From NCBI GenBank assembly GCA_964643615.1, contig CAZXTR010000002.1:937-64936 (forward strand): a stretch of 64,000 nucleotides of DNA, given 5' to 3'. This DNA is from an uncultured Lactobacillales bacterium (GTDB taxonomy: Bacteria; Pseudomonadota; Alphaproteobacteria; CAAHEQ01; UBA3637). The notes under the pieces are model-generated. The model was given only the letters and a program-made list of their open reading frames with translations, was not told where the DNA came from and ran no database searches. How positions within the stretch are numbered: position 1 is the stretch's first letter; each line of letters starts with the position of its first letter. Below, in pieces: positions 4,412-24,257 of this stretch. The position numbers were made by a program, and so were the translations under genes.

Positions 4412-4440
4412 TTTACAAGCTTGTTTATTTTAGATATAAT
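4412..4440 (+). promoter_or_regulatory. Near-consensus sigma70 promoter (TTTACA-17 nt-TATAAT) driving the T4SS-associated operon
   Basis: TTTACA at 4412-4417, a 17-nt spacer, TATAAT at 4435-4440, then an AAGGAGGGG RBS and the ATG at 4472. Confidence 0.6.
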
Positions 4441-4471
4441 GTTAGAAATCGTTTAAAAAAGGAGGGGAGAT

Positions 4472-5197
4472 ATGCCTTTGACACAAAAACGGATAACAAA
4501 AGGACTTTTGGTTGTTTTAGGGATGATTTTGGGGGTATCTTCTGTTCGGGCAGCTCATCCGATTACCGATATTACGCAAGATGCTTTGGCTGTAGTTGAA
4601 AATTCAAATGTTTTAAAACAATCAATTCAATTATTTGAATCGGGCGCGGTTGCTCGGTCTATTTATACAGCACAAGGAGATTTTAGAACCTTGGGCAATA
4701 ATTGGAGTTCTATTTTGACCTTTGATTGGGCGATGGATTCGGGATTAAGGCAAGCCTTTGCACCTGTTTTAGATGATGAGGATTTGACGGTTGCCCTTTC
4801 TGGGGATTTAGGTGTTGTTGGTGCTGCAAGAGGCTTCAATGTTACAAATTTAAGACGGAAAGTTGAAAAAACGTTAATGTTGCCGATAAATATTTCAGAT
4901 ATAACAGCACGGGAATTGCAAGCGATAAAACTTGAACAGCGGCGAAAGACAAGAGCTGCAACATTAGACAATTATTCGTTGGGTTTATCTGTTCAAGTGG
5001 ATGCAACGAATTTTGAAAAGGAAAAAATACCAGCGATTCGTCAAATGGCTCAAAAAACAGAAAATTTGACGGAAGCTGTTGTAGTTCAAAGTGAGGGTTT
5101 GAATTTGATTGCATCCCAAATCAATATAAATAATTTGTTAAAAGCGGCAGCGTTGGAATTACAATCCATTGAAGTGATGAAAATGGTTGATGGATAA
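4472..5197 (+). CDS. Secreted (signal-peptide) alpha-helical protein of unknown function. It may be VirB5/TrbJ-like.
   Basis: N-terminal signal peptide (LLVVLGMILGVSSVRA), then hydrophilic heptad-rich sequence. It is the first gene after the promoter and is translationally coupled to the next ORF. Confidence 0.5.
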   Translation: MPLTQKRITKGLLVVLGMILGVSSVRAAHPITDITQDALAVVENSNVLKQSIQLFESGAVARSIYTAQGDFRTLGNNWSSILTFDWAMDSGLRQAFAPVLDDEDLTVALSGDLGVVGAARGFNVTNLRRKVEKTLMLPINISDITARELQAIKLEQRRKTRAATLDNYSLGLSVQVDATNFEKEKIPAIRQMAQKTENLTEAVVVQSEGLNLIASQININNLLKAAALELQSIEVMKMVDG

Positions 5198-20803: not shown

Positions 20804-20879
20804 ACTTAAAAAATGCATTGTAATAAAGAAAGTTTTTTTTTATAATGGATTTAAACTTATTTATGGGGGAGGACGTTGA

Positions 20880-23800
20880 ATGTTAGAAGAAGTATTAAAA
20901 AAGGTGAAAAATCTTTTCAGAAAAGATTCGGGGAATCATTCTTTGTGTAAGCAACGTTCAGAAAAACAGAAAAATCAATTTATTATTGTTGGCCATGGGA
21001 TGGTCGAGATGCTAGCGGTACTTGCTTTGGTAGGCGTATTGTCGGTAGGAGGTGTTACATGGTATCAATCTAGTCTACGGAAAGCAAAATCGAACGATTT
21101 GTGGAAAGAGGTTATGTTGCGAAGCATAGCGACGCGGACGGCTCCTGACTTTATGATCCTTAAAAATGGGGAAGAATTTAACTTAGCAGGCTTATCAAAT
21201 ACGACGAGCAATGGTTATACTATAAAATCATTAAAATCGAATGGAGCGTCTTATTATATAGAGTTATCAAATGTTCCGTCGGCGACATGTAAAACGATGT
21301 TGAAATCTGTGCCAGAGGGGGTACGCCATATTACAGTAGGCGATAGCACTATGTACGATGGAAGCGACAAGAGCATCTGTGACAGTGAAAGTGCAATGCG
21401 CTTTGCGGTGTGTTTTGGCGTAACATGTACGTCGGTTGATTTGTGCAAAAATGTAGACTGTGGAGATAATGGGTGGTGTAATCAGGCGGAAGGGATATGT
21501 TATTGTAATCAAGGTTTTGTGAGGGATGCAGCGAATAGCTCGTGCATAGTTGATCCGTGTCCGCCAGAAATGAGATGTTGCAATGGTGGTAGTAAATTTG
21601 TGTCTGGGGGAGCATGTTCATGTCAATGTCTATGGCCATGGATGGGGTCGGACTGTACAGAATTGGATAATGTGTGTATGCCGACGGTGTCGGGGCATTC
21701 TTCAATCGATTGTGGGGCTCATGGGCAATGTATAGAGGATCCGTCATCTGATGTTCCGACAAAGAGTCCAAAATGTGAATGCGATAATTGTTATAGCGGA
21801 AATTTATGTGATCAAAGAGATGAGTGTTGTTTTCAAATGATGGAAAATCCAAATTTATGTAGCGGACACGGTGATTGTTTTGATGTTAGCGATAGTGGCA
21901 GGTTATTCCTATCTTGTAACTGCGATTCCGGATACAAAAATACAAAGTTCTATTCGAAAGAGTATCACACCGCCGATGCTCTAGAAATGGGAGTAATTAG
22001 TTGCGATACGTGTGACACAGGGTATTATCGCTCTGATGAGAATACTTGCTCGGCATGTCCGACAAATGAAGGTGTTGAAGGTTGGTCACAAGAAGACAAG
22101 GCTACTACATTTAATGGGAGTTGTGTGTATCAAGTGCATGCTGATTGTGAAACGGTTTATTTGCCTCAAGGCGCTGCTTGTGTATTGGGAGAGTTGAATG
22201 GAGTATGTTCAGAGACCCATGAGTGTGTGCCGGATTGTGGTGAGACCGCATGGTGGAATGGTACGAACTGCTCATGTTTGGAAGGTTATTATTCAGCAGG
22301 CGGGATAATAGATAATGAGACACATACGTGTACAGCATGTCCGGAAAATTCATTTAATGAAGGAACGGGTAATACATCTTGTACGTGTGCAGTGGGATAC
22401 TTTTCAGCAGACGGGACAACAAATAATGAGACGCATATGTGTACGCCGTGTTGTCCAGATGATCCCGAAAGTTTAGAGCCGAACTTTGAAAAATGTCCTC
22501 CGTCGACGACGGAGCCGGGACAAATGTCCTGTACGTGTGCAGATAAGGAATGGGTATCGGATTCATCGTCACAATATTATAACACATGCGCCATAGTGTG
22601 TGGAACAGAACTTTGTAATGAAGGACAATATTGCAAAGATGCAAACACATCGCACACGGAGCGTACTCCATTGGAATGTGCAGATTTACCCCCAGAGAAA
22701 GCGAGTATTTATGTAGGCGGACGTTTGTATACGAATTTTAAACCAGGTTTCACCTCGTGGTGGGACGCCGACAGCATTTGTAGAGCTTATGGTAGTTCAT
22801 TGGCGACACAAGCCATTATTGGACATACGGGTGATGCCGCCCAGTGGGTTGAAACAGATTTATATGAAAAATGGGAAAAGGAGTTTCTTCTTAAAGGTAA
22901 TAGAACATGGTTAGCAGACGACGTATCAAGTATACTCGCACAAACAGTGTCGATTAGTGGGAGTTTGCAGGGATTTGCTAGAGCAAGAACGGACAGTATA
23001 ATAAATGAGTTTATTTGTCAAAAAGAATATACGCCAAACTGTTCAGAAAATTCAACGTTTGATCCTGCAAGCGGTTCATGTTTATGCGACATAGGGTATT
23101 ATAATGCGGTGGATGGTACATCCGACAATGGTCAAATCTGTACTGAATGTGCCGATGATACATTCAATTATGAAAAAGGAAGTAAGTTTTGTTGTGGAGA
23201 GGGAGAGTACATTGCTGATACCAATGAATCAGATTATTTCCCCCATCCAGATCATTGTGCAACTATCCCGACAAGCCCCGATTTTTCATTTATGCTGAAT
23301 GGCTATAAGATGGATATATATGCTACAAACAAGGTTCCTTCGTGGTGGGATTCCAATAATTTGTGTAAGGCATTGGGGCAAACATTGATGACAGCGGAAG
23401 CCGTAAAATGGACAGGTTCAAAGGCATCGTGGCAGGGGGTACCTGAATCAGTGATTCTATGGAATAATATTTCGCCATATACAAGCTGGACGAACTATAC
23501 TTTTATGCAACCAGAACGGTATGGGGAAGGTATGTATTTCTATAGTAAGAGTAATGATCTAGGTATGCGCAACATTGGGTATACATCTAAATTAAAGTCC
23601 CCAGCCGGATATGATGTAGTTGTTGTATGCCAAGAGCCTTTCTCGAAGACTTGCCCTGCTAATGCAACCCTTACAGAAGAAGTGATAGTGGACTGTCAAT
23701 GCAATGAAGGGTATTATGCCCAAGATGGTGGGCGTACTATGGCCTGTACGCAGTGTTCTTCGGGAACATATAATGTAGGCACTGGCAGCACAATGTGTTG

Positions 23801-24257
23801 CACTTCTGGGGTTGAATATATGAAAGATACGAACGAAAGTGACACTATTCCCCATCGAACAAGTTGTGCTACTATGCCTGCTGTTAAACTCGCATATCAA
23901 GAAGGTGGTACAACATATAATTATTATGGATATAAAAGAAATCTTAATTATTCGTGGTGGGATGCTGAATCTATTTGTGCTTCGGCAGGGGGGCGTTTGT
24001 TATCAATAGCCGAATATGGATCTGGGGATGGTTCTCTTGCCGATAGGATGATCTCCTATTGGGAATCTCAAGGGATTACCTGGGGCGGGGGAAATTACGG
24101 ATATTATGGGACTTTTCATGTATGGACATCGGAATATCAATATGGTGGGGCTGCGAACCCGTATAAGACACTTGTGAATTTGATAGATTATAAAACATCA
24201 TATTCGATGAAAACAAATGTGGGAACGATGAAAGGTGTCTTATGTGCAATACCATAA
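20880..24257 (+). CDS. Large cysteine-rich, eukaryote-like surface or secreted protein (1125 aa). It has a prepilin-like N-terminus, ephrin-receptor/TNFR-like Cys repeats and three C-type-lectin-like modules.
   Basis: The N-terminus has a basic leader, then G|HGMVEMLAVLALVGVLSVGGVTWYQ (class III signal-like). Repeated C.C..GY(Y)....G.....C..C motifs. Three SWWD(A/S)..(I/L)C.A.G..L modules. Confidence 0.6.
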   Translation: MLEEVLKKVKNLFRKDSGNHSLCKQRSEKQKNQFIIVGHGMVEMLAVLALVGVLSVGGVTWYQSSLRKAKSNDLWKEVMLRSIATRTAPDFMILKNGEEFNLAGLSNTTSNGYTIKSLKSNGASYYIELSNVPSATCKTMLKSVPEGVRHITVGDSTMYDGSDKSICDSESAMRFAVCFGVTCTSVDLCKNVDCGDNGWCNQAEGICYCNQGFVRDAANSSCIVDPCPPEMRCCNGGSKFVSGGACSCQCLWPWMGSDCTELDNVCMPTVSGHSSIDCGAHGQCIEDPSSDVPTKSPKCECDNCYSGNLCDQRDECCFQMMENPNLCSGHGDCFDVSDSGRLFLSCNCDSGYKNTKFYSKEYHTADALEMGVISCDTCDTGYYRSDENTCSACPTNEGVEGWSQEDKATTFNGSCVYQVHADCETVYLPQGAACVLGELNGVCSETHECVPDCGETAWWNGTNCSCLEGYYSAGGIIDNETHTCTACPENSFNEGTGNTSCTCAVGYFSADGTTNNETHMCTPCCPDDPESLEPNFEKCPPSTTEPGQMSCTCADKEWVSDSSSQYYNTCAIVCGTELCNEGQYCKDANTSHTERTPLECADLPPEKASIYVGGRLYTNFKPGFTSWWDADSICRAYGSSLATQAIIGHTGDAAQWVETDLYEKWEKEFLLKGNRTWLADDVSSILAQTVSISGSLQGFARARTDSIINEFICQKEYTPNCSENSTFDPASGSCLCDIGYYNAVDGTSDNGQICTECADDTFNYEKGSKFCCGEGEYIADTNESDYFPHPDHCATIPTSPDFSFMLNGYKMDIYATNKVPSWWDSNNLCKALGQTLMTAEAVKWTGSKASWQGVPESVILWNNISPYTSWTNYTFMQPERYGEGMYFYSKSNDLGMRNIGYTSKLKSPAGYDVVVVCQEPFSKTCPANATLTEEVIVDCQCNEGYYAQDGGRTMACTQCSSGTYNVGTGSTMCCTSGVEYMKDTNESDTIPHRTSCATMPAVKLAYQEGGTTYNYYGYKRNLNYSWWDAESICASAGGRLLSIAEYGSGDGSLADRMISYWESQGITWGGGNYGYYGTFHVWTSEYQYGGAANPYKTLVNLIDYKTSYSMKTNVGTMKGVLCAIP

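Follow-up and report, generated by a model that had tools for sequence, protein, structure and literature searches.

Gene content and organization of the locus

We evaluated a 64,000-nucleotide stretch of DNA (hereafter the window; contig CAZXTR010000002.1, from an uncultured bacterium that GTDB places in alphaproteobacterial lineage UBA3637) in search of a T4SS (type IV secretion system) locus. Scanning for open reading frames (ORFs) revealed eleven genes on the forward (+) strand at 4472–20803, with a promoter-like site from 4412 and a Cys-rich gene of 1125 amino acids (aa) after them. In order, the eleven genes encode five proteins that each possess an N-terminal hydrophobic signal-like segment (o1 to o5), a VirB8 paralog (B8b), VirB7, VirB8, VirB9, a giant VirB10 and VirB11; all features below are on the + strand unless stated otherwise. 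The genes overlap or lie no more than about 90 nucleotides (nt) apart, the sole exception being the 264 nt that separate virB8 from virB9. Housekeeping genes, for the LptD C-terminus, SurA, RsmA, YggT, a DUF167 protein and FolD, are found upstream.

The promoter-like site is sigma-70-like (TTTACA-17-TATAAT, 4412–4440), has 11 of 12 consensus matches and sits in the 106-nt folD–o1 spacer, with an AAGGAGG ribosome-binding site downstream of it; its promoter function is a prediction from consensus. The same TTTACA-17-TATAAT arrangement also occurs 9–20 nt past folD in four relatives (L006, L011, L017, L038), and, counted as a class, promoter-like sites show no enrichment in this region (22 observed versus 22.5 expected). 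The virB8–virB9 gap (11135–11398) is the only long non-coding spacer in the operon and measures about 240 nt in relative L005 and about 100 nt in L007. Rfam returned no match across the locus, this gap included, and it is possible that the gap holds an internal promoter or regulatory element.

An initial annotation, made from the letters of the window, had described same-strand, tightly packed genes running from a near-consensus promoter at 4412, a T4SS locus of the order B8-B7-B8-B9-B10-B11, several atypical parts (a duplicated VirB8, a long VirB9, a VirB10 4–5 times the usual size) and no virD4 behind virB11. Each of these points held: the ORFs all lie where they had been placed, VirB8, VirB9, VirB10 and VirB11 have Pfam or TIGR matches, and the order of the T4SS genes equals that in the central part of islet C of the Rickettsia rvh system. 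Taking the whole explanation together, we consider it likely that 4412–20803 is one operon that encodes the periplasmic and outer-membrane scaffold of a T4SS together with the VirB11 ATPase, and that this system is chromosomal, vertically inherited and P-type.

The locus is conserved across a clade of gut Alphaproteobacteria

Scanning GTDB species genomes with a degenerate pattern built from the VirB9 alignment revealed at least 110 genomes with the gene, from which we retrieved 80 loci (designated below by L numbers); the same scan with VirB8 alone revealed nothing. VirB9 is kept at full length and at 45–75% identity in 110 genomes, and nearly all of the 80 loci come from metagenome-assembled genomes of human, ruminant, rabbit and horse gut that carry the label ‘Alphaproteobacteria bacterium’. 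The order B8-B7-B8-B9-giant B10-B11 is kept in essentially all 80 retrieved loci of one gut clade, and the arrangement is far beyond chance. Gene position is also kept, as FolD is directly upstream in 33 loci and the LptD-SurA-RsmA-YggT-DUF167-FolD context recurs in relatives.

Evaluating sequence identity to the nearest relatives, we found the core genes (VirB11 82%, VirB7 81%, VirB9 71–73%) to be more conserved than neighbouring housekeeping genes of the same relatives (FolD 61–64%, RsmA 67–69%), which argues for a functional, vertically inherited machine rather than a decaying mobile element. The locus is not a one-off, but is conserved across a whole uncultured clade of alphaproteobacteria from the mammalian gut. 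Three of the retrieved loci come from assemblies labelled Lactobacillales (L022), Holdemanella biformis (L028) and Limosilactobacillus gorillae (L086), and these assemblies are probably mis-binned or contaminated. In the full-text literature we found no paper describing a T4SS in these bacteria.

VirB7, a VirB8 pair and VirB11

Within the plasmid collection that we searched, the nearest T4SSs were those of Microvirga sp. VF16 (pMVF16-3), Erythrobacter aureus and Sphingosinicella sp., whose VirB11 proteins are 37–40% identical to the window VirB11, far above the next plasmid matches. The Microvirga system also resembles the locus in its VirB8 (30% identity), VirB10 barrel (35%) and VirB7 (52% over 29 residues).

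VirB8 (10400–11134, 244 aa, NPMG motif) matches Pfam PF04335 at 4.4e-17. Its paralog B8b (9420–10112, 227–230 aa, NPVG motif) is 29% identical to it (BLASTP 2e-11) and shares its topology, with an N-terminal transmembrane (TM) segment at residues 33–57, as well as the NPxG motif; on its own B8b is below Pfam significance, and it was found in about 80 loci. Comparing the clade VirB8 profile with the PDB, the best matches were Bartonella VirB8 structures (4MEI, 4LSO, 4KZ1, each about 1e-10), with no match to the Rickettsia typhi RvhB8-II structure 4O3V at E≤1, while phmmer searches of PDB sequences with VirB8 and with B8b retrieved no VirB8 structure.

Between the two VirB8 genes lies that of the VirB7 lipoprotein (10208–10384, or from 10202; 58–60 aa), which possesses a lipobox (LVSC) and a KKSPC motif, is 76–81% identical in relatives, and is homologous (7e-11) to a 58-aa Microvirga plasmid protein encoded between the VirB5/6 positions and VirB8. 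A [KI]KSP+Cys motif is a feature of Rickettsia VirB7 and of ComB7 (Gillespie et al. 2009, PMC2653234). The last gene of the operon encodes the VirB11 ATPase (19814–20803, 329 aa, Walker A GATATGKT; TIGR02788 1.2e-40, Pfam T2SSE 1.5e-20), which is 66–83% identical in relatives and 325–333 aa long there, bar one 350-aa ORF call. Judged by the hallmarks of a P-type T4SS, the locus encodes VirB8, VirB9, the VirB10 barrel and VirB11 together, carries the VirB7 lipoprotein gene upstream of VirB8 and VirB9, and possesses predicted members of the VirB5/TrbJ family.

VirB9 carries a C-terminal SPOR domain

VirB9 (11399–13033, 544 aa) possesses a Gly/Ser-rich insertion and a C-terminal extension. Its match to Pfam CagX (PF03524, 7e-13) covers residues 87–349 with the insertion inside, and it is 36% identical to the Microvirga VirB9 across residues 63–353. 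The extension holds a SPOR domain, a predicted peptidoglycan-binding module of approximately 90 residues (12767–13030, extent approximate). All 36 homologous VirB9 tails that we evaluated match PF05036 at E≤0.1 (best 8.1e-8), and a profile of the tails searched against the PDB had as its sole match the CwlC SPOR domain 1X60. No SPOR match was seen on the Microvirga VirB9, the one plasmid VirB9 scanned, and we found no paper in the full-text literature that joins VirB9 and a SPOR domain. From the tail profiles we conclude that the long form of VirB9 ends in a predicted SPOR domain.

A giant VirB10 with a beta-flower-type repeat array

VirB10 (13058–19801) is 2247 aa long, and between 2032 and 2683 aa in 72 relatives. 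From N- to C-terminus it comprises a TM segment (residues 26–49), a Pro-rich stretch, about 140 residues without a family assignment, a repeat array, a TrbI barrel and a low-complexity tail. The barrel (18821–19402, residues 1922–2115) matches PF03743 at 4.3e-34. The array (13670–18607, residues ~205–1850) extends for about 1650 Gly/Val/Asp-rich residues between the membrane anchor and the TrbI barrel, with a 17-aa period and about 94 units. It matches two Pfam beta-flower models, PF21785 Bflower_2 (2e-85, 282 bits against a cut-off of 38, in 11 stretches) and PF21784 (8e-22, 78 bits against a cut-off of 25), and with scores above the gathering thresholds here and in four distant relatives it is assigned by its sequence to the beta-flower families (Pfam clan CL0395).

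The same VirB10 architecture is found in relatives down to 46–52% VirB9 identity. Within it, the TrbI domain is 74–84% identical and the array 49–64%, about the level of FolD, and the array aligns gap-free and colinearly between species. The VirB10 gene holds no long DNA repeats, but just two short tandem repeats of 59 and 110 nt. Because the array aligns without gaps across species and long DNA repeats are absent, each repeat is individually maintained, and we interpret the array as a stable structural element rather than a recombination-based switch.

By topology the array, which follows the inner-membrane anchor and precedes the outer-membrane barrel, should be periplasmic. VirB10 is usually present in 14 copies per machine, and at that stoichiometry the array would add a very large periplasmic mass. 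The beta-flower fold was named in 2023, and the part of that account that we consulted gives no experimentally shown function for it, noting a resemblance to Tubby-like lipid-binding proteins and members that are annotated ‘cell wall-binding’ or carry lipoprotein signals (PMC10584680). No paper tying the beta-flower fold to a T4SS was found in the full-text literature.

An array of VirB5-family paralogs upstream of the core

Four genes that encode signal-peptide proteins open the operon: o1 (4472–5197, 241 aa, with a signal peptide and an HPITD motif), o2 (5208–5924, or from 5187 as an ORF, 238–245 aa; the start at 5208 is taken from the gene call in L001), o3 (5921–6865, 313–314 aa) and o4 (6862–7587, 241 aa). 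Neither Pfam nor NCBIfam assigned o1–o5 and their orthologs to a consistent family, even with the threshold relaxed to E≤10, and PADLOC gave none. Across all retrieved loci, we grouped by clustering the ORFs that lie upstream of the first VirB8, which placed o3 and o4 in the same cluster (c0, 109 proteins from 62 loci) and o1 in another (c14).

Comparing these families by hhalign linked the o3/o4 family to the o1 family (96.6%), to a family related to o2 (cluster c17, 94.8%) and to several others (84–97%), with a C-terminal, helical region of about 100 residues common to them. In pairwise searches, o1 also has weak BLASTP similarity to o2 and o3 and is 40–42% identical to orthologs in L005 and L009. 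Typically, a locus holds 3–5 VirB5-family paralogs.

Similarity to VirB5 came from the plasmid systems. A c0 hidden Markov model (HMM), built from gut sequences only, scored 40–44 bits over nearly the full length of the VirB5-position proteins (those coming after VirB4) of the three plasmid T4SSs, against a maximum of 16.5 bits for 3000 composition-preserving shuffles and three reversed sequences. By hhalign, c0 matched an alignment of the three plasmid VirB5-like proteins at 96.8%, these plasmid proteins matched seven canonical VirB5/TrbJ sequences at 92.5%, and the paralog families compared directly with the seven canonical sequences reached just 60–67%. The Erythrobacter VirB5-position protein itself passes Pfam PF07996 (30.3 bits, cut-off 24.7). 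The VirB5 link is convincing because the alphaproteobacterial plasmid proteins bridge the families in this way. A profile of the o3/o4 family searched against the PDB had one match, TrwJ, the VirB5 of R388 (E=0.12), and o2 has a match to TIGR02780 TrbJ (E=0.004). A HMMER search with an o1–o4 profile against 1.84 billion representative sequences retrieved 18 proteins, none bridging to canonical VirB5. A low-confidence AlphaFold2 (AF2) model of o4 comprises three long helices (predicted local distance difference test, pLDDT, 62; predicted template-modelling score, pTM, 0.35).

We conclude that o1–o4 represent tandem, rapidly diverging VirB5-family paralogs, for which the link to VirB5 is direct for o3 and o4, by way of paralogy for o1, and weak for o2, the weakest assignment among the four. 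Consistent with rapid divergence, o1–o5 are only 36–49% identical to their nearest relatives.

A possible further case lies on the plasmids, where a 420–450 aa protein occupies or adjoins the usual VirB6 slot (L088 14044–15330, L097 6473–7834, L096 6526–7794) and is not a polytopic VirB6. Against the VirB5-like profile, the Microvirga and Erythrobacter proteins gave weak matches (1e-6 to 4e-6) and the Sphingosinicella homolog gave no match, such that in the first two plasmids this protein may be a second, enlarged VirB5-like paralog.

A clade-specific secreted protein, o5

Directly upstream of B8b lies o5 (7604–9445, 613 aa), a clade-specific secreted helical protein with a signal peptide. It occupies the position immediately before the VirB8 paralog in 64 loci, and its homologs form 11 clusters among 5.8 billion proteins, with every contig showing the same neighbourhood. 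Its sequence holds invariant Trp, Pro and Cys positions, and its structure model consists entirely of long helices (pLDDT 68, pTM 0.64). Neither the VirB5 families nor the plasmid proteins at the VirB6 position are related to o5. Because its position is fixed and it diverges at a rate like that of the VirB5 paralogs, the most economical guess for this clade-specific accessory protein is that it would act at the machine's surface or tip.

The Cys-rich neighbour and the remainder of the window

After virB11 and a 76-nt spacer lies o12 (20880–24257, 1125 aa, 80 Cys), an orphan modular protein that resembles a type IV prepilin and is a neighbour of the T4SS rather than a conserved part of it. The spacer contains a promoter-like TTGTAA-17-TATAAT (20818–20846), which has 10 of 12 matches and is predicted from consensus only. 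At its N-terminus o12 possesses the prepilin motif G|HGMVEMLAVLALVGVLSVGG (Glu at +5), behind which comes a PilS_N pilin domain with a marginal score (PF08805, 22.9 bits, cut-off 22), and it has weaker matches to PpdD (E=0.13) and NCBIfam NF007862 (E=0.0046). The protein thus shows a predicted class III signal peptide, hydrophobic helix and pilin domain, with marginal scores. The remaining ~940 residues are Cys-rich with EGF-like spacing, match no family and lack any significant internal repeat; among EGF and Lectin_C profiles, only EGF_Teneurin matched (E=0.003), below its cut-off. Three ‘SWWD..C..G..L’ modules had been considered as C-type lectin domains, an idea that gained no support, with no Pfam match for them even at E≤10. 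A protein homology search for o12 found none but itself.

In relatives, other genes follow virB11, often a conserved pair of ~175 and ~155 aa. We rejected o12 as a functional replacement for VirD4, given that it is a prepilin-like orphan and that most relatives lack it here. Prepilin-like genes, either small or Cys-rich with 21–79 Cys, occur near the locus in about 9 of 80 relatives, on either strand. There is also a clade-wide family with the common prepilin N-terminus GRSM[IV]EMLGVLAIIGVLSVGG (L018 20215–21839, L037 19051–21461, L055 ~1944 on the − strand, L056 ~15794, L062 ~21230 on the − strand, L063 18798–19747, L029 20078–20674), whose members are small pilins of 150–200 aa or large Cys-rich proteins (21–66 Cys in the visible part), and which is often near the T4SS locus though not fixed there.

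We read o12 as a candidate for an independent, lineage-specific, modular pilin-like adhesin outside the T4SS. A prepilin peptidase (Peptidase_A24, PF01478 1.4e-16) is encoded at 48344–49060 (+), 24 kb from o12, and might process it; the window contains no gene for a pilus assembly ATPase or platform protein. A DsbA-like thiol-disulfide oxidoreductase (31328–32134, −) could be relevant to the folding of the 80-Cys protein. As in the modular type IV pilins PilB and PilC of Streptococcus sanguinis (PMC8179133, PMC9934059), a pilin N-terminal module is fused to large, potentially adhesive extra modules, whereas the extra part here is ~940 Cys-rich, EGF-like residues with no detectable family.

Evaluating the scanned window ORFs outside the locus revealed chromosomal housekeeping genes (MFS transporter, GGDEF proteins, DnaK/DnaJ, FadL, SecDF, NrdD and its activase, iPGM, RF-1, Suf, GroES/EL, pyruvate kinase). 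The anaerobic ribonucleotide reductase NrdD and its radical-SAM activase (39675–42705) indicate an anaerobic lifestyle. Two GGDEF proteins (26201–27874 and 56397–57425) and a hybrid histidine kinase (37037–39238) are encoded on the − strand. Run SRR10769903 yielded a Logan assembly contig that carries the same sequence.

Comparison with known secretion systems

In gene order the locus resembles the rvh system. Its islet C reads virB9a-virB8a-virB7-virB8b-virB9b-virB10-virB11-virD4, and the system as a whole lacks only virB5 (Gillespie et al. 2009, PMC2653234). Both systems share the order B8-B7-B8-B9-B10-B11, a duplicated VirB8 with one copy more divergent, and a short VirB7 bearing the [KI]KSP+Cys motif, and both are chromosomal and vertical with other vir genes apparently elsewhere in the genome. 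The presence of four VirB5-family paralogs where rvh has no VirB5 sets our locus apart from rvh. Further differences are a single virB9 with a prepilin-like gene after virB11 (a second virB9, and virD4 after virB11, in rvh), the 4–5 times longer VirB10 with its beta-flower-type repeats and the SPOR domain on VirB9, and a VirB8 profile that matches Bartonella structures and not that of R. typhi RvhB8-II. The hosts also differ, with rvh found in obligate intracellular bacteria and our locus in anaerobic gut bacteria.

In size, VirB10 recalls CagY of Helicobacter pylori, which is likewise an oversized VirB10 with a large repeat region N-terminal to a conserved C-terminal domain, and from this likeness an enlarged core complex would be expected here. 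In CagY, in-frame recombination between direct DNA repeats tunes secretion (PMC5954226, PMC2194252). Here, the repeat region is likewise N-terminal to the VirB10 domain, but recombining direct DNA repeats are absent: we found no long DNA repeats, the array is colinear and gap-free, and the 17-aa unit is unrelated to CagY motifs. The plasmid T4SSs differ in another way, having a complete canonical B2-B3-B4-B5...B7-B8-B9-B10-B11-D4 order with a relaxase (MobA/MobL), a single VirB8, a VirB10 of 530–590 aa and one or two VirB5-like genes.

These comparisons modify the initial annotation in several respects. Of its five ‘unknown’ upstream proteins, o5 keeps that status and o1–o4 lose it as VirB5-family paralogs, which, with the Cys-rich gene separate from the T4SS, removes the claim that the flanks have no counterpart in virB/rvh loci. 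The ‘eukaryote-like adhesin’ that had been linked to the T4SS is instead read as a prepilin-like orphan (o12) with its own promoter-like site, absent here in most relatives. The proposed likeness to rvh stands for gene order, and gives way where VirB5 is present, the nearest plasmid T4SSs are alphaproteobacterial and VirB8 best matches Bartonella structures. Structure prediction, which had been put forward as a check, yielded helices for o4 and o5 and no specific fold match.

Proposed function and competing explanations

We propose that the VirB7/9/10 core would form an enlarged envelope complex anchored to peptidoglycan: SPOR domains on VirB9 would attach to glycan strands, and an extra periplasmic ring or skirt, made of the VirB10 arrays, would parallel the enlarged core complex of Cag. 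As alternative surface or tip subunits, the fast-evolving VirB5 paralogs together with o5 would contact the target cell (host epithelium, gut eukaryote or other bacterium), and the genes for VirB2, VirB3, VirB4, VirB6 and VirD4 would lie elsewhere in the genome, like the Rickettsiales ‘archipelago’. Such a machine would be a contact-dependent secretion and adhesion device rather than a mobile-element transfer apparatus, a reading that follows from vertical inheritance, from the constraint on the core, and from the window ORFs scanned (not every ORF; the 80 loci were not scanned with relaxase or integrase models), none of which is a relaxase, integrase or other mobile-element gene.

A number of observations weigh against this explanation. 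Searching the window and the 80 loci (10 kb on each side of the VirB9 gene) by phmmer with two or three references for each of VirB1–B6 and VirD4, we found no match to any of the VirB1–B6 references, and so no VirB2, VirB3, VirB4 or VirB6, in either, although the VirB4 ATPase is universal in T4SSs; accordingly, the energising and inner-membrane parts either are missing or, as in Rickettsiales, have their genes in another part of the genome. VirD4 was likewise not found in the window, and among the 80 loci only in L081, where a VirD4-like gene (57–2462, −) adjoins the locus; very similar to the VirD4 of the Microvirga plasmid (1e-104), it may be part of this T4SS or of an integrated element next to it. 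The window copy of the SPOR domain scores 15.8 bits (PF05036, E=0.018), under the gathering cut-off of 21. For o2, its own small cluster (c16) matched c0 at only 62.7% by hhalign, and compared directly with the plasmid VirB5-like set it reached 2%. Neither structure model helped, as Foldseek with the o4 model returned generic helical hairpins alone with no specific match, and the o5 model had no specific fold match. In the most distant subclade (L077–L087, 45–48% VirB9 identity), loci begin with B8-B7-B8, have an esterase and a DEAD-box helicase upstream, and lack the VirB5-like/o5 array at the locus position, such that in these genomes the array is either elsewhere or was a later gain within the clade. 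The periplasmic placement of the VirB10 array leaves a ring, cell-wall binding and surface reach all as candidates, and the substrate, the target cell and the surface exposure of VirB5 are each things that we infer.

The strongest competitor to contact-dependent secretion and adhesion, though one we consider unlikely, is an adhesion-only T4SS of the Bartonella Trw type that lacks a coupling protein and displays variant VirB5 structures to a host receptor. Trw mediates adhesion to erythrocytes, with an amplified VirB2 pilin (trwL) and with trwJ co-amplified with trwI and trwH (PMC2883598). Our locus shares with it tandemly amplified, fast-diverging VirB5 homologs (trwJ), a chromosomal VirB-type setting and no coupling-protein gene there, a combination that in Trw serves adhesion, and among the retrieved loci that reach past virB11 (about 70 of 80) none has VirD4 after VirB11. 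However, Trw is colinear with plasmid R388; VirB2 and VirB6 are absent from the locus here; amplified VirB2 pilin genes were not seen; the VirD4 homolog beside the locus in L081, in at least one relative, indicates that the clade does not as a whole lack coupling proteins; and VirB11 is very strongly conserved.

Two further explanations are less likely than either secretion and adhesion or the Trw type. It seems improbable to us that the locus is the transfer apparatus, whether active or a remnant, belonging to an integrated conjugative element, or that it serves DNA uptake or release in the manner of ComB or the gonococcal genetic island (GGI). Its nearest plasmid-collection relatives are indeed encoded beside MobA/MobL relaxases and VirD4, the VirB7 KKSPC motif is in common with ComB7, and G+C is somewhat raised above the flanks (0.41–0.43 over 12–24 kb). 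The G+C rise, however, coincides with the Gly/Val/Asp-rich VirB10 repeats; in many species the locus keeps its chromosomal place behind folD, and neither a relaxase, an integrase nor border repeats were noted there; conservation of the core above that of housekeeping genes argues for long vertical inheritance; and VirB11 and VirB5, which ComB systems are not known to possess, are both present here. Slightly less probable still is an interbacterial killing machine of the Xanthomonas X-T4SS type aimed at gut competitors, with which the gut habitat, the chromosomal VirB-type locus and the lack of any obvious eukaryote-directed effector gene in the window would agree. The VirB7 of X-T4SSs is characterised by a C-terminal N0 domain, for which the 58-aa VirB7 here is too short, and toxin/immunity-like pairs were not noticed beside the locus.

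Implications for an uncultured gut clade

Returning to secretion and adhesion, a more far-reaching version is that the locus represents a distinct, undescribed T4SS subtype, ancestral to an order-level gut clade, in which the array-bearing VirB10, the SPOR-VirB9, the 3–5 diversifying VirB5 tip proteins and o5 would together make an enlarged envelope machine, locked to the cell wall, that directly contacts host or eukaryotic cells. We hold this tentatively, as a possibility that ranks well below the operon assignment itself. If true, the system would be a free-living counterpart of rvh and Cag, and would provide the first functional context for the beta-flower fold.

Whichever version holds, four elements are undescribed: the VirB10 with its beta-flower-type array, the VirB9 with its SPOR domain, the set of VirB5 paralogs together with o5, and the universality of the system in an uncultured gut clade. 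The sole well-known giant VirB10 is H. pylori CagY, whose size has been tied to immune-driven recombination, and the locus adds a second, independent giant VirB10 with a different and stable repeat in more than 100 gut species, several of them from human-gut samples. It also places the beta-flower fold in a well-understood machine at a defined topology, where its function can be tested. The rapid evolution of the VirB5 paralogs points to them as the likely surface of contact with the target cell, and the conservation of the core above that of housekeeping genes suggests that the system is central to the life of these common, uncultured gut Alphaproteobacteria.

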